Source: Patescibacteria group bacterium (GTDB lineage: Bacteria; Patescibacteriota; Minisyncoccia; Phycocordibacterales; JACOZG01). From it: a DNA stretch of 64,000 nt. Both the position numbers and the translations under genes were made by a program. Shown in pieces: positions 1,906 to 25,200 of the stretch (position 1 is its first letter; every line of letters begins with the position of its first letter). The stretch covers positions 3,400 to 67,399 of the forward strand of contig JAYEGE010000008.1 of NCBI GenBank assembly GCA_034658935.1, written 5' to 3'. Under the pieces are notes generated by a model, which was not told the DNA's origin, ran no database searches, and saw only the letters and a program-made list of their open reading frames with translations.

Positions 1906-3777
1906 ATGGCCAGAAAGTTTACGTTGATCGCTGTGGTTTTGGGTACGGTTTTTGGTCTGGGGGCAGGATGTCCACCCCACCTCGATGTGACGCCTGTAGT
2001 GCCACTACATGTCGGCATTGAGGCGCTTGACTCCGATACTGGTGAGCCACTGGAGGTTGATGGGGCGCGACGACTTGAAGTGTCGGTTGGCACTTTGGTG
2101 CATTTTGTGCCGATAGAGGTGTCGCCTCCGGCCCAAGGCGGGGGCGTTGCCGACCAGGATGCTAGTCCGGCTGGACTAGCATCTAAGCCGAAGGGGGCTG
2201 CTTTGAACAAGCTGCCTTTTTCGGAAGCGACTTTCCATTGGCGAGTCTCGAGCGAGAGTGTTCCTCGGGAATCGACCTATGACTTCAATTACACGTTTGC
2301 AACCGCGGGCGTGTATGAAGTGGCCTTGCTCCGGGTTGACGTTCATTACGTTAACCCATTGGTGATTAGTCAGGATAAAGCCAGGTTACAAGTGGTGGTA
2401 TCAGAGGAGCCGATTGTGCTTCCTCCGATTCCTCCTCCACCGGTGCCTGACCCAGGGCCGCCATTTTTTACTGGCGGTGTTGAGATCAATGGCCTGATTT
2501 TCTTTGACGGCGAGTTCAGTCTCGGTGCCGGAGAGACTCTGCGCATTGATGGCACGGGCGTGGTTAGTGGGGGGCGTTTGCCCTACACGATCCAGGTGAT
2601 TGGTTCAGACGGAACCGTCTTGGCCGAGAGTTTGGGATTGAAGTTGGACTGGACGCCAACGGAGTCGGGTACTTACACCATCCGTGTCATCGATGCGGAT
2701 GGTCGGACGCTCGATTTGGTGATTGTGCTGATTCTGATCTGCCCACCAGATTCGCCCGTGCCACCCATTCCGCCTACCCCCACCGTTAACCTGAAAATCA
2801 ACGGTGGGGACGGGCCACTAGAGCTTGTTACTCTAGCGCCAGGAGGAGTCTCGGCCAACCTCAGGTTGTCCTGGGGTTCATCTGACGCTGAAACCTTAGT
2901 CGCCTCGAGCGCCTGGTCTGGTAGCAAGTCTCTCAGTGGAACAGAAACCGTCAACGGCTTGCCGGCAGGTGACTACCTTTTTACCTTAGCGGCGACCGGT
3001 GATGGCGGTACGGCGACGGATAGCGTGGGAGTCCACGTTGTTGATCCGGCGCCGAATCTCTATCGCCTGAGGGTGACCCATACTGGCGGTGGAGACGTTA
3101 GGATTTCTCCCGCAGGTGATGGTGGTTATGAAGAAGGAGTGGTTGTCACTCTGACGGCTGTTCCCGAAACAGGCTATCGCTTCGTTGATTGGGGGGGTGA
3201 TCTGTCGGGATCGACGAGTCCTACCTCTATCACTATGGATGGTAACAAGGCGGTTACAGCGAGCTTTGCTCGCCTGACCTACGCCATTACCGCCAGTGCT
3301 GAACTTGGAGGCAGCATCGATCCTGAGGGCATCGTAATGGTCGCCCATGGCGACGACCAGCGTTTCGATTTCGTGCCCGACCCGGGCTATGAGATATTCA
3401 TGCTCTGGGTTGACGGTTTGATGGCTGATGTGGCTCTGTCTTACACATTTACCGACATGGCGACGGGTCACAACATTAGCGTGACTTTCCGGGAAATCGT
3501 TCCCCGGCCTCTGATGGCAGAGATTGTCTCGCCGGAGAATGGCACACACCATGATGTCGGCGATGAGATAATTTTCAGGGCCGAGACAAGTGGTGGTACG
3601 CCGCCTTACACTTACCATTGGTTGTTTCCAGACGGCAGTAACGTCTGGACCGACCAGGCGGGCCTTGGACACGTGTTCGATTTCGAAATCCAGAACGGGT
3701 CTGTCTATATGCAGGCTCGAGACGGAGCCGGGCTCTTGAGTCCGGTAACCCAAACCATCATCTGGGTTTACCCGTAA
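1906..3777 (+). CDS. large secreted/lipoprotein-like protein with Pro-rich linkers, InlB-B-repeat (Listeria-Bacteroides repeat)-like beta domains and a C-terminal PKD-like domain
   Basis: ATG at 1906 (MARKFTLIAVVLGTVFGLGAGC...) gives a signal or lipoprotein-like N-terminus. PPIPPPPVPDP and PPIPPTPT act as linkers. Two repeat domains (YRLRVTHTGGGDVRISPAGDGGYEEGVVVTLTAVPETGYRFVDWGGD... and YAITASAELGGSIDPEG...) are followed by PPYTYHWLFPDGS, which resembles a PKD motif. Confidence 0.55.
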   Translation: MARKFTLIAVVLGTVFGLGAGCPPHLDVTPVVPLHVGIEALDSDTGEPLEVDGARRLEVSVGTLVHFVPIEVSPPAQGGGVADQDASPAGLASKPKGAALNKLPFSEATFHWRVSSESVPRESTYDFNYTFATAGVYEVALLRVDVHYVNPLVISQDKARLQVVVSEEPIVLPPIPPPPVPDPGPPFFTGGVEINGLIFFDGEFSLGAGETLRIDGTGVVSGGRLPYTIQVIGSDGTVLAESLGLKLDWTPTESGTYTIRVIDADGRTLDLVIVLILICPPDSPVPPIPPTPTVNLKINGGDGPLELVTLAPGGVSANLRLSWGSSDAETLVASSAWSGSKSLSGTETVNGLPAGDYLFTLAATGDGGTATDSVGVHVVDPAPNLYRLRVTHTGGGDVRISPAGDGGYEEGVVVTLTAVPETGYRFVDWGGDLSGSTSPTSITMDGNKAVTASFARLTYAITASAELGGSIDPEGIVMVAHGDDQRFDFVPDPGYEIFMLWVDGLMADVALSYTFTDMATGHNISVTFREIVPRPLMAEIVSPENGTHHDVGDEIIFRAETSGGTPPYTYHWLFPDGSNVWTDQAGLGHVFDFEIQNGSVYMQARDGAGLLSPVTQTIIWVYP

Positions 3778-9170: not shown

Positions 9171-9514
9171 TTATTTCTCTCGCTGCTTGTTGGCGAGAGT
9201 TTTCTTTTGCAGACCCTTTTCCCAGCCGCCGAGTTGTCTGCCCACCTCTTCTAATTTGGTTATTAAGTCAGAGTATTTGCTCGTTGCTATTATCTTGCTT
9301 TCCCAGGCTAATTGAGTGAAAAATTTTAACGAGTCTAGTTTGGCGATTGCTCTGCTTAGCACTATGATTTTGGATTCTGGTGACAGATAAATTGAAGTAA
9401 AGACAAGGTCTAGAACATCAAGAAACATTTGTTCTATCTTTTGTCTCAAACCACCCTTTCCACTCTAGGGAGGTTGCGGTGAATTGGCAGCCAGAACTGA
9501 TAAGCTTCCTTCAT
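9171..9514 (-). pseudogene. Avd-like (DGR accessory variability determinant / four-helix-bundle) gene, frameshifted near its 5' end
   Basis: The 92-aa ORF 9171..9449 (TTG start) ends ...LEEVGRQLGGWEKGLQKK and contains MFLDVLDLVFTSIYLS, resembling the C-terminal helices of Avd/bAvd-family proteins. The missing N-terminal helix (MKEAYQFWLPIHRNLPRVERVV) is encoded in another frame at 9446..9514. Confidence 0.5.
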
Positions 9515-10522: not shown

Positions 10523-10810
10523 ATGGCTAAGAGATTGTATGTCGGTGGTTTGCCCTACACTACTACCGAGGAAAGTCTCCGCACTGCTTTTGCTCAAGCT
10601 GGGACCGTGGAATCCGCCAATATCATTATGGACAGGATGACCGGTCGCTCTAAGGGCTTTGGTTTCGTGGAGATGGCCACCGATGAGGAGGCCGCTAAAG
10701 CAATTGAAACGTGGAATGGTCAGGACTTCGAAGGACGTCGTCTCACCGTAAATGAGGCCCGCCCACTCGAAGAGCGACCCCCACGCCGCAATGGCGATTA
10801 CCAGGCCTAA
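10523..10810 (+). CDS. RRM-domain RNA-binding protein
   Basis: LYVGGLPYTTTEESLRTAF (RNP-2) and KGFGFVEM (RNP-1). Length 95 aa. Confidence 0.8.
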   Translation: MAKRLYVGGLPYTTTEESLRTAFAQAGTVESANIIMDRMTGRSKGFGFVEMATDEEAAKAIETWNGQDFEGRRLTVNEARPLEERPPRRNGDYQA

Positions 10811-10821
10811 GGCCTAGTAAC

Positions 10822-10856
10822 AAAACTCCCCCGCCAGTCGGGGGAGTTTTGTTTTG
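10822..10856 (+). terminator. rho-independent terminator (aaaactcccccg / cgggggagtttt followed by a T-run)
   Basis: Perfect 12-bp hairpin followed by TTTTGTTTTG. Confidence 0.7.
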
Positions 10857-10878
10857 CCTGAGAATAACCAGGCGAGGC

Positions 10879-15543: not shown

Positions 15544-16090
15544 GGCTTGGTGCCGGGCAATTAATCCAATGTTTGGCGTTGGGTAGGAAAGTCCGGACAC
15601 AGCGATTCCTTTATTTAATAAGGGATGGGAATGGTAGCGGCTCCGATGCTCCATAGGGAACTATAGAGTTCGGAGCTCCGACCCTCGATGTAATATCGGG
15701 GCGTCGGAGGTAACGCCCGTCCTCCGATGGACATCGGAGAGGGATGCGAGCAGAGACGTCGAGGGCGAGAGCCTAAGACCCCTTCAGGGTGATGCTCATG
15801 GAGACGTGAGCTTGAAACGGCAAAATTCCTACCTCTGTGCAAGGTCGTGCCCAGCACCACTTTCAGAAAAGTGGTGCTGGGAGTGCCGCTATAGGCGATT
15901 GGCGACAATCGTCACAGATAAATGATTGCCACCAATTTTGTTCACCACAAGTGAGTACAAAATTGAGTGCTCCGACTTTACGTCGGAGTTAAACCCCGAC
16001 GACCTGTCGGTATCGGGGTACTCGATTTTGCGTCCACCTGCGGTGGGCAAAATCGGCACAGAATCCGGCTTATGAGCACCAAGCCACCAA
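15544..16090 (+). ncRNA. rnpB: RNase P RNA (bacterial type), unusually long, about 545 nt
   Basis: Contains AGGAAAGTCCGG (P4 5' strand), ATAGGG and ACAGAATCCGGCTTAT (P4 3' strand). The P1 stem pairs ggcttggtgc (15544-15553) with gcaccaagcc (16076-16085). A terminator hairpin lies at about 16107-16135. Confidence 0.7.
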
Positions 16091-19844: not shown

Positions 19845-20222
19845 ATGAGGAAATTTCAAACAAGGAATTGGGGCAGGCGGATAATCTACTCCAAGTGGGC
19901 AGTGGCCGTGTTAATCGTCCTCGTGCTTCTATTACTCCGCTCGGTTATCTTAACCTGGCAACGTGAGCGCTTGGCGGGAGATGGATTGACGGAGGTTAGG
20001 GAACAGGTGGCGGCTTTGGAGGTGCGTAAGGAGCAATTGGCTGCCGATTTGGCCTTGCTCGAAACTGAGCGCGGGGTAGAAGAACGCATCCGCCGTCAAT
20101 TTGCAGTTGCCAAGGAGGGGGAGAAGGTAATGACGGTGGTTTTGCCAGACCGCCCAGCAGATTCTGCTGCTCCCTCAGCCATTTTGCCCTGGTGGCAGCC
20201 GCTATTAGACTTGTTTGATTAA
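19845..20222 (+). CDS. FtsB/DivIC-like septum formation initiator (TM plus coiled coil)
   Basis: N-terminal TM helix followed by the coiled coil LEVRKEQLAADLALLETERGVEERIRRQFAVAKEGEKVMTV. Confidence 0.5.
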   Translation: MRKFQTRNWGRRIIYSKWAVAVLIVLVLLLLRSVILTWQRERLAGDGLTEVREQVAALEVRKEQLAADLALLETERGVEERIRRQFAVAKEGEKVMTVVLPDRPADSAAPSAILPWWQPLLDLFD

Positions 20223-20321
20223 GGTTAGAGTTTTTGTATGATTGCGGCGGGCCTTGCCTCGCCGTAGCCGCGAGGTAGATTTGGCGAAGCCCGACTTCGC
20301 TAGAGCTACGTCGTGGCGAAG

Positions 20322-20392
20322 GCGGGTATAGTTTAGTGGTAGAACACGACCTTCCCAAGGTTGAAACGGGGGTTCGATTCCCCCTACCCGCA
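20322..20392 (+). tRNA. tRNA-Gly (anticodon CCC)
   Basis: Manually folded cloverleaf: acceptor gcgggta/tacccgc, anticodon loop ttCCCaa, T-loop ggttcgattcc. No encoded CCA. Confidence 0.8.
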
Positions 20393-20477
20393 CTTTTGTT
20401 GAGAAAAGAAAAAGCCCCCCTGATCCGCTGTAGCGAATCGGGAGGGCGTCGAGGTTTAAGTGCCTCTGTGTCTGTGA

Positions 20478-20852
20478 AGGTTAGTCCCGCCTCTTCGGCG
20501 TACCCATACGTTTTCTACTGCTTCGATAGGGTGGCACTCAGTTACCTACGGCGATGGCCTCTTTGTAGCGGTGGCATATGATGGCACCAATAGCGCGATG
20601 ACTTCACCTGACGGCATTACTTGGACAGCTCGTGCGACCGCGGAAGTAAATTTTTGGTACAGTGTTACCTACGGCAATGGCACCTTCGTGGCAACGGCTG
20701 GTTCTGGCACCAACCGTGTCATGACCTCAGGAAAAGCCGATCTCTACGACAATCCACACGATAATATCTACCAAGGTGGTATGTCCATCATGGGCGGTAA
20801 CGTCGGCATGGGAACAACCACTGACATTCCACGAGGCTCAACCTCGTGGTAA
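20478..20852 (+). pseudogene. 5'-truncated fragment of a repeat protein (WxSVTYGNGxFVA tandem repeats)
   Basis: The open frame starts right after a stop, with no ATG or RBS. It contains GWHSVTYGDGLFVAVAYDG...ITWTARATAEVNFWYSVTYGNGTFVATAGSG. The ORF track gives it a GTG start at 20571. It sits between tRNA-Gly and the IS-like element. Confidence 0.4.
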
Positions 20853-21583
20853 GATAGGGTTATGTCTAGGCAGATTGAGTTCTCGGTTGACGAATTTTAT
20901 CATCTCTATAATCGCGGTAATGATAAACGCGATATTTTTTTAAGCTCGGCCGACAGGCGTCGCTTTACTGCTTTATTATATCTCTCCAACTCTTGCCACT
21001 CCTTCCACTTCGAGGAACTAAAAAATGCCCCATTTGATTTTGATCGTGGGGCGGCTCTGGTCGATATCGGGGCCTATTGTTTAATGACCAACCATTACCA
21101 CTTGTTAGTCCGAGAACGTCAAGAAAATGGTATCAGTCAATTTATGCATCGTCTGTCCACTGGCTACACCATGTATTTTAACAAGAGGTGGCAACGTCGC
21201 GGTTCGTTATTCGAAGGTCGTTTCCGCGCCAACCATGCCGGTGAGGACAGGTACCTTCATTATTTATTTGCCTATATTCATCTTAATCCGGTCAAAATGA
21301 TTCAAGCGGATTGGCGGGTGATTGGTTTGAAAGACAAAGCATCGGCCAAAGATTTTCTCGGCCAATATTTATACTCGAGTTATCAAGATTGTCTTGGTTT
21401 GAAGCGTGAGAGTGGCAAACTGCTTGCTCGAGAGGCTTTTCCTGACTATTTCTCCGAATCGAATGAGTTTGATAGTTTTTTATCTGATTGGTTGAATTAC
21501 CATGACCACGAGGTTGAGCCTCGTGGGGAGAGGGGGCTAAAGTGACTTGACCTTTTAAGATTCCACGAGGCTCAACCTCGTGG
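20829..21583 (+). mobile_element. IS200/IS605-like mini-element 1 (Y1/HUH transposase gene bounded by palindrome ccacgagg-ctcaa-cctcgtgg)
   Basis: Identical hairpins at 20829-20849 and 21563-21583, both within the direct repeat attccacgaggctcaacctcgtggt(a/t)aag. An inverted copy lies at 21506-21526. Total length 755 bp. Confidence 0.65.
20862..21545 (+). CDS. Y1 HUH transposase (IS200-like / RAYT-like)
   Basis: CLMTNHYHLLV (HUH motif) and YLFAYIHLNPVK (catalytic Tyr motif). Length 227 aa. Paralogous to 43120.. and 57321.. Confidence 0.7.
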   Translation: MSRQIEFSVDEFYHLYNRGNDKRDIFLSSADRRRFTALLYLSNSCHSFHFEELKNAPFDFDRGAALVDIGAYCLMTNHYHLLVRERQENGISQFMHRLSTGYTMYFNKRWQRRGSLFEGRFRANHAGEDRYLHYLFAYIHLNPVKMIQADWRVIGLKDKASAKDFLGQYLYSSYQDCLGLKRESGKLLAREAFPDYFSESNEFDSFLSDWLNYHDHEVEPRGERGLK

Positions 21584-21635
21584 TTAAGCTTGTCGGGCTT
21601 CCATTCCCGGCCAAAGATTAGTAGCATTTTAGTAA

Positions 21636-21923
21636 ATGGCTATTGATTTTATTAAAAAACAGGAGGATTTTACTTGTGAGCATTGTGGAGTGCTGGTGGA
21701 GGGAAGTGGTTATACTAATCATTGTCCTCATTGCCTATGGTCTAAGCATGTTGATATAAATCCCGGGGACAGGGCGGCTGATTGTGGTGGCTTGATGCCG
21801 CCTGTGGGCTATGAATCTGAAGATGGCACCTACACTCTGACTCATCGTTGCGAAACTTGTGGTCATGAGAAGCGTAATAAGGTGTCGTCGGGAGACGATC
21901 TCGCTCTGCTTGCCGGGCTATGA
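21636..21923 (+). CDS. small zinc-ribbon protein, RNHCP-domain-like
   Basis: CEHCGVLVEGSGYTNHCPHCLWSKHVD...CETCGH. The TNHCPHC motif and four Cys pairs support the call. Confidence 0.45.
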   Translation: MAIDFIKKQEDFTCEHCGVLVEGSGYTNHCPHCLWSKHVDINPGDRAADCGGLMPPVGYESEDGTYTLTHRCETCGHEKRNKVSSGDDLALLAGL

Positions 21924-21937
21924 TATGATTTTAGTCT

Positions 21938-22189
21938 ATGGCAAAACAAGTAACAATTTATAGTACTCCTGCCTGCGGCTATTGCCGCATGGCTAAGGAG
22001 TTTTTTAAAGAAGAAAATATCGAATATACCGAGTACGATGTTCAAGCCGACCCCAGTAAGGCTCAAGAGATGATTAAGAAATCGGGCCAGATGGGCGTGC
22101 CGGTAATCGTTGTTTCTGGGGAGGGGAGTGAGGAGCAGATGTTTGTTGGCTTCGATCGACAGGCTCTAAGCGAGGCGCTTGGTATATAG
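21938..22189 (+). CDS. glutaredoxin-like protein
   Basis: VTIYSTPACGYCRMAKEFF shows a CxxC thioredoxin fold. Length 83 aa. Confidence 0.75.
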   Translation: MAKQVTIYSTPACGYCRMAKEFFKEENIEYTEYDVQADPSKAQEMIKKSGQMGVPVIVVSGEGSEEQMFVGFDRQALSEALGI

Positions 22190-22224
22190 TTTATCCGCCC
22201 AAATGCGAAGCTTTTGGCAGGGCG

Positions 22225-22444
22225 GTTTGCTTGCCCTCGTAGCCCCGACGCCTTTGCATAGGGGTCGGGGTCCCGACTGAAGCAAGGCGAACGTCGGGAT
22301 TCAATGATAGACTTTGTGCGAAGTGGTTTGCTTGCCCTCGTAGCCCCGACGCCCTTGCATAGGGGTCGGGGTCCCGACTGAAGCAAGGCGAACGTCGGGA
22401 TTCAATGATAGACTTTGTGCGAAGTGGTTTGCTTGCCCTCGTAG
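22225..22444 (+). repeat. 101-bp tandem repeat (2.2 copies) whose 5' 18 bp equals the first 10 nt of tRNA-Arg plus its 8-nt leader
   Basis: Unit starts at 22225, 22326 and 22427, so the period is 101 bp. Each unit has two hairpins with cccgac/gtcggg stems. Confidence 0.8.
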
Positions 22445-22506
22445 TTCAATGGATAGAACGGCCCCCTCCTAAGGGGCAGATGCAGGTTCGACTCCTGCCG
22501 AGGGCA
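22435..22506 (+). tRNA. tRNA-Arg (anticodon CCT)
   Basis: Manual fold: acceptor gccctcg/cgagggc, anticodon loop ctCCTaa, T-loop ggttcgactcc. Confidence 0.8.
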
Positions 22507-22665
22507 AAAAATAAAAGAGACTTATGCGTATGTATGAGGCGACTGTTATTTTTTAGCCCTCGGCAGGAGTCGGGGTCGAGAGTACTTAGATTTTTGCGAA
22601 TGCCTGGAGTAAAAAGCTTAGTAACTCGTGACCGACTCCCCCTCCTCCACCCTATTTTATATACT

Positions 22666-22694
22666 TGACAAAAAGGCTAGTGTATGCTAGTATA
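22666..22694 (+). promoter_or_regulatory. possible promoter TTGACA-N17-TAGTAT
   Basis: Consensus -35. The -10 hexamer is weak. Confidence 0.3.
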
Positions 22695-22771
22695 CTAGCA
22701 GTTCTTCGAAATCGGCAATTGACTGCGGTTGATTGCCACTTTTACTCTTTTTTCCAGGGAGGAAAAATATC

Positions 22772-23458
22772 ATGTTGCCGAATCCTTTTCCGGTAGTGTT
22801 GGAGTTCGAGGTCGCAAGGAACGCGAACCACAGGGCAAGGGGGGCAAAGCAAATTGCCGCCTTTGGCCGCAATGGGGACAAATTTGTCTCTGATCGTGAC
22901 GGCAGACACCAGCCTCGTGCTGGTGAGACCTGGTTGTGTCGAGCGCACACCCAGATCGGGCGGATCAAGCGCCGGGGTCATCGAGACGGGCGTCTCATCC
23001 TCGTTGTCTTGGAGGCACGGTTGACGGCCAAGACCAAAACCCTCGTCTTCTCATACGATGAGGACGAGTGGGTGCGTCTCGGCGCGGTGAAGGATGATTG
23101 TTTTCATCGGATATCTGATGTCACGCCGCCTTTTTGGAGGCGCGCGGGCGAGTTTGTCTGCCGAGCGGTGCTTGACCTAGAAGGCTGTGGTGACGATGAA
23201 GAGCCCCAGCCTCGGCGTATTGGCTTCGACGAGGAGAATCGGCCGATCTTCCTCGTCGTCCCTGAACGCCCCTCAGAGGAGGAGGCCCGAATATTGTGGG
23301 CGGCTAGGGTGGCGAAGAGTAATGAGCCGCATCGGCAAGCTCGTCTGAGGGCAGTGAAGGATCGCATCCCCGTGGAGGACGCGGTAGCGAGGATTTGCCT
23401 CGGTGGCAGCCTCTTCAACGGAGTTATTACGGCAGGGCCCGAAACCAAATCAGCCTAA
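22772..23458 (+). CDS. GC-rich, Arg-rich orphan hypothetical protein
   Basis: ATG at 22772 has a GGGAGG RBS. No recognisable domain. GC content is clearly above the flanks. Confidence 0.4.
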   Translation: MLPNPFPVVLEFEVARNANHRARGAKQIAAFGRNGDKFVSDRDGRHQPRAGETWLCRAHTQIGRIKRRGHRDGRLILVVLEARLTAKTKTLVFSYDEDEWVRLGAVKDDCFHRISDVTPPFWRRAGEFVCRAVLDLEGCGDDEEPQPRRIGFDEENRPIFLVVPERPSEEEARILWAARVAKSNEPHRQARLRAVKDRIPVEDAVARICLGGSLFNGVITAGPETKSA

Positions 23459-23479
23459 AGGGGGTGATCGCATCTAGTG

Positions 23480-23535
23480 CCCCCGTGAGACCCCGTCTGT
23501 AAAAAGACGGATTATCTCACGGGGGTTTCTTTGCG
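23480..23535 (+). terminator. rho-independent terminator (nested hairpin cccccgtgaga...tctcacggggg followed by a T-run)
   Basis: Inverted repeat followed by TTTCTTTG. Confidence 0.55.
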
Positions 23536-23552
23536 TCTAATTTTGTTATAAG

Positions 23553-23849
23553 ATGAACCACATGAGTCCGGAGGAGAAGAAGTTGCTTGAAGAGGCAGTT
23601 GGTCTATCACGCGAAAATAATAAGATGCTCCATCGCTTGCAGAGTGCCATGCGTTGGGGTCGTTTCTATTCCATCCTTAAGTGGGTCATTATTGTCGGCT
23701 TCACTTTTGGAGTCTATTATTATCTCCAGCCGTATTTGATTGGCCTTATTGATGCCTACCAAGCCGTGTCAGAAGGATTAGATGAGGTTAGGGAGGCGGG
23801 GAGTAATCTACCCGACTTCTCTGGTTTGCTTGATAGATTCGGTCAATAA
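23553..23849 (+). CDS. small hypothetical membrane protein
   Basis: One TM helix (WVIIVGFTFGVYYYL). Confidence 0.4.
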   Translation: MNHMSPEEKKLLEEAVGLSRENNKMLHRLQSAMRWGRFYSILKWVIIVGFTFGVYYYLQPYLIGLIDAYQAVSEGLDEVREAGSNLPDFSGLLDRFGQ

Positions 23850-23862
23850 GTAACAAAGCCTC

Positions 23863-24126
23863 ATGGCCTATGTCTATATTCTTCGCTGCGATGGCAATCG
23901 TTATTATGTGGGCAGTGCAGTTGATTTACAAAAGAGGCTTAAACATCATGATAGAGGTCTAACTCCCTCGACAAAAAGATTAGGAAATTGCCACTTGGTT
24001 TTGTCTCAAGAGTACGAAACCTTGATTGATGCTAGATTAGTGGAGGGTAAAATTAAGAAGTTGAAAAGAAAAGATTACATCGCTAGAATGGTAAAAGATG
24101 GCGTAATCAAAGTAATGCCTCGGTAG
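23863..24126 (+). CDS. GIY-YIG nuclease family protein (small stand-alone)
   Basis: MAYVYILRCDGNRYYVGSAVDLQKRLKHHDRG shows the GIY-YIG motifs. Its 3' end overlaps tRNA-Phe by 10 nt. Confidence 0.75.
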   Translation: MAYVYILRCDGNRYYVGSAVDLQKRLKHHDRGLTPSTKRLGNCHLVLSQEYETLIDARLVEGKIKKLKRKDYIARMVKDGVIKVMPR

Positions 24127-24188
24127 CTCAGTGGTAGAGCGCCTGCCTGAAGAGCAGGGCGTCGGTGGTTCAATTCCGCCCCGAGGCA
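24117..24188 (+). tRNA. tRNA-Phe (anticodon GAA)
   Basis: Manual fold: acceptor gcctcgg/ccgaggc, anticodon loop ctGAAga (G37 is atypical for Phe), T-loop ggttcaattcc. Confidence 0.7.
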
Positions 24189-24189
24189 C

Positions 24190-24352
24190 ACTCGTACTTA
24201 CTTGGTAGCTTGTCCCGACCGGTTTGCGTGCGTCGGGAAGCGCCTGCCCCCGACGTTTCAGTCGGGGCGGAGCTGAAGAGCAGGGCGTCGGTGGTTCCCC
24301 GCCCGACACGCAAGACGAGCTTGCGAGTCGTTGCGGGCGGGAATTCCGCCCC
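24190..24352 (+). repeat. degenerate tRNA-Phe-like copy (anticodon arm through 3' end plus CCA) interrupted by three small GC-rich hairpins
   Basis: agcgcctgc[ccccgacgtttcagtcggggcggag]ctgaagagcagggcgtcggtggttc[44-nt hairpin]aattccgccccgaggcacca. The D-arm region is replaced by the hairpin tcccgac...gtcggga. Confidence 0.6.
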
Positions 24353-24466
24353 GAGGCACCACTTGTATCCCCGTCTTACTATTTACTTCTCAGCTATAGT
24401 TTGTTATAATCCTTTTAGTATTAGATGGTAGGTCTATGTCTCTTGGCAGGAATAGGGAGTTTAGTT

Positions 24467-24676
24467 ATGGCAGGAAATGAACAGCCAAAGAAAGACGGTG
24501 GAGTGCTTGGCAATGTTCAAGTGTTTAATCGGTTCACCCCCAGAGGTCCCGGTCCCGAAAGGCTTGAGTACGGCGTGCAACTTCTTCCTGATGGTGGGGT
24601 CGGCGTCTTTATCGGCGGAAATTTGGTCAGTAGAGATGATCTCCTAAAGATCGCCGGCGCGGTCGAAAGGTGCTGA
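24467..24676 (+). CDS. hypothetical small protein
   Basis: ORF only, with no support beyond its length. The ORF track starts it at 24425. Confidence 0.3.
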   Translation: MAGNEQPKKDGGVLGNVQVFNRFTPRGPGPERLEYGVQLLPDGGVGVFIGGNLVSRDDLLKIAGAVERC

Positions 24677-24700
24677 CTCACTATGTTTCCGGTGAGGCCA

Positions 24701-24731
24701 AAAAGGCGGCTATCGAAAGCCGCCTTTTTTG
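24701..24731. terminator. bidirectional rho-independent terminator (aaaaggcggct-atcgaa-agccgcctttttt)
   Basis: Hairpin flanked by an A-run and a T-run between convergent genes. Confidence 0.65.
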
Positions 24732-24744
24732 ATGTCCCAAGTTC

Positions 24745-25200
24745 TTAAAGTGACTTAACCTTCAAGCTCTGATTTTTCTGCTTATCTATTTTAGGCAAGC
24801 GGAGGGTTAAGAGGCCGTGTTTTTCGATGGCTTCGGCTTCCTCTACCTCGATTTCAGTTGGTAGGGAAATGGCGCGAGTGAAAGAGCCCCAATAGAGCTC
24901 TCGTTGAAAATAGTCTTCGGTATTTACCTCGCGAGTCACCTCTCGCCGCCCCCTGATAGTCACCATCTCACGAGTAATATTAACGTCAAGATCTTCTGGT
25001 TTTACTCCGGCCACCATTGCTCGAATGATGATCTCCGATGGCGTCTGGTAGACATCAACTGCCAGCTCTCCTTCTTCCTCGGCTTCATCCTTCCAGGTTG
25101 GTTGATCGGTGGTCTCCTCGCTCGAGATATCTAATTCCAGTTCATCTCCGTCTAGGGCGACACTGCCAGTTAGACGTTCAAAGAAAGATCTTTTTTTCAT
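24745..25200 (-). CDS. Hsp20/alpha-crystallin family small heat-shock protein
   Basis: The alpha-crystallin domain pattern (AVDVYQTPSEIIIRAMVAGVKPEDLDVNI...GLLTLRLPK) is present. Confidence 0.8.
   Translation of the reverse strand: MKKRSFFERLTGSVALDGDELELDISSEETTDQPTWKDEAEEEGELAVDVYQTPSEIIIRAMVAGVKPEDLDVNITREMVTIRGRREVTREVNTEDYFQRELYWGSFTRAISLPTEIEVEEAEAIEKHGLLTLRLPKIDKQKNQSLKVKSL

Follow-up and report, generated by a model that had tools for sequence, protein, structure and literature searches.

Why should hairpins of one sequence family gather inside partial copies of tRNA genes? The question is raised by a 64,000-nucleotide (nt) stretch of Patescibacteria DNA (contig JAYEGE010000008.1; hereafter, the window), in which a preliminary description had noted three tRNA genes, for Gly, Arg and Phe, within 4.2 kb. 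ARAGORN and Rfam agreed on all three: tRNA-Gly(CCC) at 20322–20393, an intact tRNA-Arg(CCT) at 22435–22507 (70.9 bits) and an intact tRNA-Phe(GAA) at 24117–24189; these, like the window features given with coordinates below, are on the forward strand. We propose, at a probability of about one half, that the hairpins mark tRNA gene relics left by a selfish cassette consisting of a minimal GIY-YIG nuclease gene and an intact tRNA gene. Our comparison set comprised 95 other Patescibacteria loci, 80 of them retrieved from Paceibacteria/Parcubacteria metagenome-assembled genomes by LepA (best identity 64%); loci that have to be told apart are cited by handles such as L083.

A scan of the 64 kb for CCCGAC-N(3–30)-GTCGGG gave six matches, against 0.10 expected, all on the forward strand. 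Four lie in 22244–22399, within two 101-nt relics upstream of tRNA-Arg, and two in 24214–24266, within a partial tRNA-Phe copy downstream of tRNA-Phe. The preliminary description had counted at least eight such hairpins, which is too many. Its four in the tRNA-Arg repeats are there, as are two of its three in the tRNA-Phe copy, the third having a CCCGCCCG/CGGGCGGG stem; the hairpin it listed upstream of tRNA-Gly is not a family member, since the cccga found there is the loop of a GCGAAG/CTTCGC stem belonging to a different hairpin pair. Relaxing the motif to its 5-bp core, CCGAC…GTCGG, raised the count to nine (1.1 expected), and the three extra matches (15678–16010) all fall within the RNase P RNA gene, outside the region first described. 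All nine core hairpins of the window are in the RNase P RNA gene or in tRNA gene relics and are not dispersed. The idea of a miniature non-autonomous repeat class is right in that a double-hairpin family exists in many genomes, and does not hold for dispersal within the window. A terminator scan of the region flagged no CCGAC hairpin, and none has a downstream T-run. Rfam searches of the window and five related loci, at gathering and permissive thresholds, returned tRNAs and chance matches only.

Upstream of the intact tRNA-Arg, the relics form two tandem 101-nt units. Unit 1 (22233–22312), delimited by its sequence, the tandem repeat and the minimum free energy (MFE) fold, consists of tRNA-Arg nt 1–10 (22233–22242; GCCCTCGTAG in each unit), a double hairpin and tRNA-Arg nt 11–23 (22300–22312). 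Its hairpins HP1 (22243–22270, CCCCGAC..GTCGGGG) and HP2 (22271–22299, TCCCGAC..GTCGGGA) are both present in the MFE fold. Each unit closes with a 21-nt copy of the leader, so that 22313–22434 comprises a leader copy (22313–22333), unit 2 (fragment 22334–22343, double hairpin 22344–22400, fragment 22401–22413) and the leader again (22414–22434), followed by the intact gene. The double hairpins of the two units are one single-nucleotide polymorphism apart. The module occupies the same position in L083, L091, L093, L094 and L096, and an ORF-less counterpart, identical in plan, lies 5' of tRNA-Arg(GCG) in L094 (3647–3760; ORF, open reading frame). Downstream of the intact gene is a trailer (22550–22639; inverted repeat I3, 23 nt, 96%) whose first part repeats the 5' strands of the acceptor and T stems, complementary to the tRNA-Arg 3' end; it continues with a conserved core, GGGGTCGAGAG…CTCGTGACC, and a T-loop remnant, GACTCC, and lacks the final 3' copy, breaking off directly before the promoter of an ORFan. 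It aligns to tRNA-Phe, -Ser, -Arg and -Gly trailers of seven other loci, with GGGTCG.GA and T.GTGACC invariant.

At the tRNA-Phe gene, the hairpins lie in a downstream partial copy (24202–24359; about nt 16–73 of the tRNA), recognized from direct repeats D5 and D9, its fold and an alignment with L087. It opens with the D-loop sequence TTGGTAG, CTTG, hairpin HPa (24213–24238), AGCGCCTGC, hairpin HPb (24248–24267), whose loop orientation is inverted, and CGGAG. A 25-nt segment from anticodon loop to T stem (24273–24297), 100% identical to tRNA-Phe, is followed by HPc (24298–24341), the hairpin with the divergent stem, and by 18 nt (24342–24359), again 100% identical, that cover the remainder of the T loop and the 3' strands of the T and acceptor stems. 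The hairpin sites in this copy are the D-loop/D-stem junction, the anticodon stem and the T loop. In L087, too, a GIY-YIG gene and tRNA-Phe are followed by a hairpin-riddled tRNA-Phe copy, which aligns with that of the window around GTAGCTTG-hairpin-AGCG. We rejected a tRNA intron, of group I or of the archaeal bulge-helix-bulge kind: excising the hairpins does not restore a complete tRNA, the tRNA-Arg units stopping at nt 23 and the tRNA-Phe copy lacking about nt 1–15 and containing the fillers CTTG and CGGAG. Rfam gave no group I intron match, and the Patescibacteria group I tRNA intron reported in a preprint sits at anticodon-loop position 35/36 and is unrelated to these split copies.

The gene directly 5' of tRNA-Phe (23863–24126) encodes an 87-aa UPF0213-type GIY-YIG nuclease (Pfam PF01541, E = 1e-11; also NCBIfam), with best matches among solved structures to two UPF0213 proteins, PDB 1ywl (EF2693; E = 6e-5) and 1zg2 (BH0048; E = 8e-5). 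Residues Y5, Y15, G17, R25, H29 and E61, which we take to be the catalytic positions by comparison with I-TevI, are invariant in five diverse aligned GIY-YIG ORFs, and the enzyme is likely to be active, judging by its sequence. The ORF overlaps tRNA-Phe by 10 nt: its last three sense codons and stop are tRNA-Phe nt 1–10, with T8A9G10 as the stop. Any read-through mRNA would lose the ORF's stop codon once RNase P had cut at the tRNA 5' end. A promoter-like TTGAAA-17-TAGAAT is located at 24061–24089, within the 3' end of the ORF and 28 nt 5' of tRNA-Phe.

This arrangement is not peculiar to the window. A profile search of all ORFs in the loci yielded five GIY-YIG homologues, and a metagenome scan together with a protein database yielded ten more; for the metagenome scan, a five-sequence alignment was too divergent and a two-sequence pattern was of low complexity, with five loci found. 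All 15 independent homologues (32–66% identity; 85–90 aa) lie directly 5' of a same-strand tRNA, the tRNAs being of at least ten kinds (Phe, Val twice, Lys, Met, Thr, Asp, Gly, Trp, Arg). The overlap is exactly 10 nt, with the tRNA's T8-A9-G10 as the stop, in 10 of the 15 loci. Hairpins lie no more than about 30 nt upstream of the GIY-YIG start codon in 13 of 13 assessable loci (window excluded), and in 12 of these a hairpin-split 5' tRNA piece can be read, L085 being cut by the contig end. The piece comprises nt 1 to about 17–25 of the same tRNA, mostly split after nt 10; the exact nt 10/11 insertion point is found in 7 of the 15 GIY-YIG loci and likewise in the window's ORF-less units. CCCCGAC-loop-GTCGGGG comes first and TCCCGAC-loop-GTCGGGA second, and some loci also have a 3' piece or an almost full, hairpin-riddled copy downstream. 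L083 (tRNA-Met), which reads GCCGGTGTAG, CCCCGACGCATAGGTCGGGG, TCCCGACTGAAACGTCGGGA and TTCAAT…ATG in succession, agrees with the window's tRNA-Arg units in both hairpins, their order and the insertion point. An assembly artefact is ruled out, as the architecture recurs in independent assemblies, including one closed genome. Beside one of these cassettes, between the GIY-YIG/tRNA-Met pair of L094 and a tRNA-Asp with a hairpin-split tRNA-Arg relic, we observed a faint LAGLIDADG-like ORF (2920–3537) that may represent another type of nuclease within a tRNA cluster.

The hairpin type follows the nuclease clade overall. Homologues at 48–66% identity have CCGAC stems, with the two hairpins of the window in the window's order and a split mostly after nt 10; those at 45–46% identity have CCGAT stems, those at 32–36% have CCCGCCC or CCCCGTCAC stems, and an intermediate homologue at 40% (L084) has CCGAC stems. 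The ORF is polymorphic at a syntenic site, TM98-[GIY-YIG]-tRNA-Phe: the window, L044 and L016 have it there, and most of the 46 tRNA-Phe loci, about 40, do not. In L087 and L096, the hairpin-bearing copy and the intact tRNA beside the ORF belong to different tRNA sequence lineages, as would follow if the cassette brought its own tRNA along.

These observations suggest a homing-like process. The nuclease would break a tRNA gene in the part that encodes the D arm, and repair of the break would copy the ORF and a replacement tRNA from the donor, leaving the host with a working tRNA and with pieces of the resident gene on either side of the cassette. A double hairpin at the D-arm position would abolish the target as well as the homology between repeats, prevent renewed cutting or loss by recombination, and so stabilize the insertion. 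A duplicated end of the target gene does flank the ORF: in 12 loci the ORF has a 5' piece before it and the full tRNA behind it, and in the window the partial copy lies downstream. The window's tRNA-Phe locus would be a live cassette (ORF 23863–24126 plus tRNA) and 24202–24359 the displaced 3' part of the resident gene. Its tRNA-Arg locus would hold ORF-less relics, namely two hairpin-split 5' pieces and a decayed 3' trailer, and the 2 × 101-nt array may have arisen by unequal crossing-over after the ORF was lost.

Several points weigh against such a cassette. The 87-aa protein has no known cleavage activity or target, and it is a catalytic domain only: the GIY-YIG domain occupies aa 1–70, with no further domain and no separate DNA-binding domain of the I-TevI or Seg type. 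The intact tRNA beside the ORF retains the presumed target. The window's GIY-YIG gene has no upstream hairpin piece, its tRNA-Arg units have no ORF, and 5' tRNA fragments in L011, L082 and L035 are free of hairpins. Because the tRNA bases that follow the hairpins match the local tRNA, the hairpins lie inside the leftover piece, which a simple one-step insertion leaves unexplained. The association of hairpins with the nuclease is biased by ascertainment, most hairpin loci having been retrieved through GIY-YIG homology. Finally, double hairpins stand at tRNA-free sites (the L12 hinge, another ORF, intergenic DNA and the 23S gene in L096; L035; the window's RNase P RNA) and so may move on their own.

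These weak points, the tRNA-free sites among them, make one alternative the main and a serious rival, although we hold it to be a distinctly minority possibility: that the double hairpin is an independent palindromic insertion element, like Rickettsia palindromic elements, mitochondrial double-hairpin elements or repetitive extragenic palindromes and bacterial interspersed mosaic elements (REP/BIME). Such an element would prefer loops of structured-RNA genes and tolerant spots, with no mechanistic coupling between nuclease and hairpins; hairpins would be seen in tRNA copies because GIY-YIG cassettes or other duplications make dispensable copies in which insertions survive.

The module has the conservation expected of an element of its own. 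Among 34 hairpins from 17 double-hairpin instances, the 7-nt arms are perfectly complementary in 31; the inner five pairs (CCGAC/GTCGG) are invariant and the outer two occur in seven complementary dinucleotide combinations (CC/GG, TC/GA, CT/AG, AG/CT, GG/CC, GC/GC and TT/AA), so that it is the hairpin itself that is conserved. Loop lengths vary, and hairpin 2 favours YRAARC. In the window, the class A RNase P RNA gene (15545–16088; Rfam RF00010, 57.5 bits, E = 7e-17) is 544 nt long, compared with a 367-nt consensus, and was missed at default thresholds, apparent insertions of about 180 nt holding it under the gathering score of 100. In it, at 15676–15709 and 15970–16012, are hairpins of this family, with CTCCGAC/CCCCGAC stems, along with a UGUAA-loop hairpin. 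L096, the closed genome of a Ca. Giovannonibacteria member (CP066687), also has the module outside its GIY-YIG/tRNA pair: in frame in the hinge of ribosomal protein L7/L12 (8968–9012, 45 nt; translated as APTLAVGAPTPEDVG), in frame in a 222-aa ORF, hyp222 (9446–9484, 39 nt), in intergenic DNA and near the 5' end of the 23S rRNA. At 10733–10866, 470 nt 3' of the pair formed by the GIY-YIG gene and an intact tRNA-Val(CAC) of divergent sequence, it has a full-length tRNA-Val(CAC)-like copy split after nt 10 by a 61-nt double hairpin and otherwise compatible with a cloverleaf, anticodon and T arms being intact. A further double hairpin follows LepA in L035.

Independent insertion fits these placements, and fits less well with others. 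Random insertion would hardly produce an occupancy of 13/13 upstream of GIY-YIG ORFs or the same nt 10/11 point in 7/15 loci, and the hairpin sequence type covaries with nuclease clade. In L096, no module is farther than about 2.3 kb from the nuclease gene and most are no more than 1.1 kb away; a few single hairpins stand deeper in the 23S gene, and the remaining ~13 kb has none. The hairpins of the window, too, cluster within a few kb of its GIY-YIG gene and are absent from the rest of the sequence. The non-tRNA sites share no common target motif. HP1 is preceded by (G/A)TAG solely in tRNA pieces, whose nt 7–10 this is, and by GCGG, AAA or TAA at other sites.

Rickettsia palindromic elements and mitochondrial double-hairpin elements are short hairpin repeats, found in frame in protein genes and in RNA genes; a two-hairpin unit is the basic form, and the known elements are dispersed and of high copy. 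The modules in the L12 hinge, hyp222 and 23S rRNA (L096) and the hairpins in RNase P RNA (window) resemble them in form, but the copies in the window are few and are in RNA-gene contexts near the GIY-YIG gene only. REP/BIME sequences are likewise GC-rich imperfect palindromes, and HP1 follows (G/A)TAG in the tRNA pieces, resembling GTAG-tagged REPs; the TAG is the tRNA's own and absent at non-tRNA sites, the two hairpins are in tandem rather than inverted, and there is no high-copy extragenic spread, with nine hairpins per 64 kb, all in RNA genes or relics.

A gene for a Y1_Tnp/REP-associated-transposase (RAYT)-like protein does lie 1 kb away (20862–21545; Pfam and NCBIfam), which favours an independent palindromic element, but it is flanked by another palindrome. 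It is part of an insert specific to the window (20571–21584) that also contains a truncated ORF and three palindromes, CCACGAGG-N5-CCTCGTGG, of 21 nt (20829, 21506 and 21563; expected 0.02). The three are identical, two direct and one inverted, and unrelated to the CCGAC hairpins. The truncated ORF (20571–20852, 93 aa) ends inside the first of them and has no tblastn match in any of the 80 loci; the RAYT has one, at any position, in only 5 of the 80.

A further variant would join the two accounts: the double hairpin may be the cis recognition element of the domain-only UPF0213 nuclease, which extruded hairpins would target in place of a DNA-binding domain. We regard this as unlikely. Were it true, the system would invade tRNA genes, RNase P RNA, rRNA and tolerant protein linkers; the cassette would bring its own tRNA, so that the host would depend on it once the resident copy was wrecked; and the large UPF0213/COG2827 family of unknown function would gain a role.

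Flanking partial self-copies accompany 26 of 172 tRNA genes in the Paceibacteria loci. Most are trailers of 100–190 nt that end in an exact copy of the tRNA's last ~13–19 nt (for example L009 12408–12560, L012 12423–12548, L040 12498–12675, L012 390–545 on the minus strand, L061, L073, L077, L026, L050 and others); a few genes have an upstream 5' piece instead, and L067 has two tandem trailer copies. Type-1 trailers consist, in order, of an acceptor 5'-strand copy, a 9-bp hairpin with a AACUGCUU tip, a T-stem 5' strand, a variable hairpin and a UGUAA-loop hairpin; 11 of their 18 predicted pairs have compensatory changes, and they have no Rfam match. A terminator usually stands behind the trailer and not behind the tRNA. 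Trailers of a second type have an invariant GGGTCG(A/C)GA … T(N)GTGACC around a variable hairpin and occur after tRNA-Arg, -Phe, -Ser, -Gly and -Leu across genomes (window 22574–22633, L044 6798–6856, L051 789–832, L038 3559–3596, L016 20942–20978, L061 8620–8651, L078 12798–12859, L009 13203–13239); at least three (window, L051, L045) contain UUGCGAAUNCYUGGAG. In L007 (6457–6650) and L008 (6805–6990), a second, near-complete copy of tRNA-Leu(CAA), for which ARAGORN makes no call, lies behind the gene; its D arm is rewritten (GCGCAATTTGAATACAGCGGTAGACGC).

Hairpin-bearing copies and trailers might instead be functional RNA elements, a reading to which we give little weight. They could be 5' untranslated structures that regulate or stabilize a nuclease mRNA made from the tRNA promoter, processing signals, or tRNA-like RNAs with an acceptor/T-stem minihelix that serve, for example, as decoys or substrates for tRNA-binding enzymes. 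All 19 of 19 double hairpins are in the sense orientation to local transcription, their stems are conserved with compensatory outer pairs, and the trailers keep the exact copy of the tRNA 3' end, the compensatory type-1 pairs (11/18) and the terminator behind them, all as a functional RNA would have it. Yet no Rfam family matches, the loop of HPb is inverted, and the tRNA-Arg units, without a 3' half, and the tRNA-Phe copy, without its first ~15 nt, cannot form a tRNA-like acceptor helix.

The preliminary description saw the block as a tRNA-targeted integration hotspot, repeatedly remodelled. Lineage-specific genes do lie beside the tRNAs, but the block is syntenic with that of relatives: LepA-DivIC-tRNAGly-Grx-tRNAArg-TM98-tRNAPhe-Hsp20(-)-TM235(-)-ValRS(-) is kept in most of the 80 loci, so that by the description's own measure the block is conserved, and in compact genomes this backbone is squeezed into ~3.4 kb. 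It is an old, conserved backbone and no scrambled island. Genes specific to the window (the truncated ORF, RAYT, RNHCP, the ORFan, the GIY-YIG gene and orf83), each beside a tRNA, are inserted into it, and relatives lack them or vary in them; three loci (L003, L027, L030) have RNHCP at this spot, two have the GIY-YIG gene, and none of the 80 has the ORFan.

That the tRNA copies are scars of repeated integrase-mediated integration and excision, with unrelated hairpins, is very improbable: variable genes adjoin each tRNA, 18 nt of the tRNA-Phe 3' end recur as a direct repeat 170 nt downstream and the tRNA-Arg trailer is truncated directly before the ORFan cassette, but ten ORFs scanned across 19845–25200 have no integrase or recombinase Pfam match, the tRNA-Arg duplications are 5' pieces and not of the 3' attachment-site (att) type, the "elements" between repeats measure only 57–170 nt, and the same architecture recurs with a GIY-YIG gene in at least 13 unrelated loci. 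The 18-nt repeat encloses just 152 nt of tRNA-derived sequence, and no 3'-end att duplication at the locus bounds a gene-carrying element. The duplicated segments come from tRNA 5' ends, are interrupted at the D arm and go with a GIY-YIG gene, which points to a homing-nuclease process rather than to integrase-mediated integration.

Small inversions were also seen in the backbone, with tRNA-Arg on the minus strand in L006, L010, L011, L025, L033, L047, L062 and L076 and the TM98-tRNA-Phe pair inverted in L057, L075, L077, L080 and L081; recurrent small inversions are expected if inverted tRNA-derived repeats recombine.

The other genes named for this region (an IS-like element, a truncated gene, RNHCP, glutaredoxin and GIY-YIG) are all present, those with domains matching Pfam and NCBIfam models. 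RNHCP (21636–21923) is variable among relatives, and glutaredoxin (Grx; 21938–22189) is a backbone member found in 63 of the 80 loci. The ORFan cassette (22665–23533) comprises a promoter-like TTGACA-17-TAGTAT (22665–22693), the best-scoring in the region, a 228-aa ORF (22772–23458) and a terminator (23480–23533), an 11-bp GC-rich hairpin (23480–23525) with a T-run. The description of this ORF as an orphan with no recognizable domain and a strong terminator proved accurate: it has no match in Pfam, NCBIfam, PHROGs or PADLOC and matched only itself among 5.8 billion indexed proteins (word-index search) and among 1.84 billion representatives (exhaustive HMMER scan). A single-sequence AlphaFold model was unusable (predicted local distance difference test score, pLDDT, 33). 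It is a true ORFan, and plausibly expressed. Directly 5' of tRNA-Gly, itself a member of the conserved backbone, two adjacent strong hairpins of another sequence family (20243–20317; MFE −50.5 kcal/mol, z = −5.5) occupy the 99-nt gap after DivIC; in compact relatives tRNA-Gly follows DivIC directly, with nearly no spacer.

The proposed cassette has counterparts outside cellular Patescibacteria. SegB, a GIY-YIG nuclease of phages, is encoded within a tRNA cluster and cuts inside tRNA genes, and it causes a tRNA+segB unit to multiply in tandem, by way of microhomology that the 5' end of the tRNA shares with the 3' end of segB (PMC13096335). Here, as with SegB of T-even phages, a free-standing GIY-YIG gene lies among tRNA genes; SegB differs in being a phage protein with no hairpin module described, whereas the gene studied here encodes an 87-aa UPF0213 catalytic domain in cellular Patescibacteria, is fused in frame to a tRNA and is associated with a leftover tRNA piece that contains a conserved double hairpin. 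SegB is also much larger than the 87-aa protein and has DNA-binding modules. Among 50,697 phage records we found no homologue of the GIY-YIG protein, and the hairpin pair was not found in IMG/VR. In fungal mitochondrial DNA, mobile endonuclease ORFs (mORFs) arrive with a new end for the gene they enter, whose native end stays behind as a displaced duplicate, as in Allomyces atp6 and Glomus atp6, atp9, cox2 and nad3; the ORF may be read in phase with its host gene, and GIY-YIG is among the nuclease families (PMC3630166). Those cases concern protein-coding genes and their 3' ends, whereas here the target is a tRNA gene and the displaced piece is mainly its 5' end, marked by hairpins. A full-text literature search found no description of GIY-YIG/tRNA/hairpin cassettes in Patescibacteria. 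Each component is of a known kind (a free-standing GIY-YIG nuclease, palindromic insertion repeats, duplication of the target gene). What is new is that, in cellular Patescibacteria, a tRNA-fused UPF0213 nuclease is combined with a double hairpin that is clade-specific and splits the displaced piece of the tRNA.

For annotation, the hairpins matter in that their apparent insertion drops RNase P RNA below the Rfam threshold, and tRNA pseudo-copies can mislead; short-read assemblies are broken by these repeats, and two Logan contigs of this locus (L001, L002) end nearby. Stand-alone UPF0213/COG2827 GIY-YIG proteins are widespread, and 1ywl and 1zg2 have the size and motif of the window protein; we know of no function or genomic role established for the family. 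For one clade of it, the strict linkage seen here offers a testable hypothesis, that of a selfish nuclease-tRNA cassette: an ORF-tRNA 5' fusion goes with an upstream hairpin-split tRNA piece and the hairpin type tracks the clade. If true, cassettes in which a homing nuclease comes with target-gene duplication, until now known from fungal mitochondria and phage tRNA clusters, would occur in the tRNA genes of ultra-small cellular bacteria as well.

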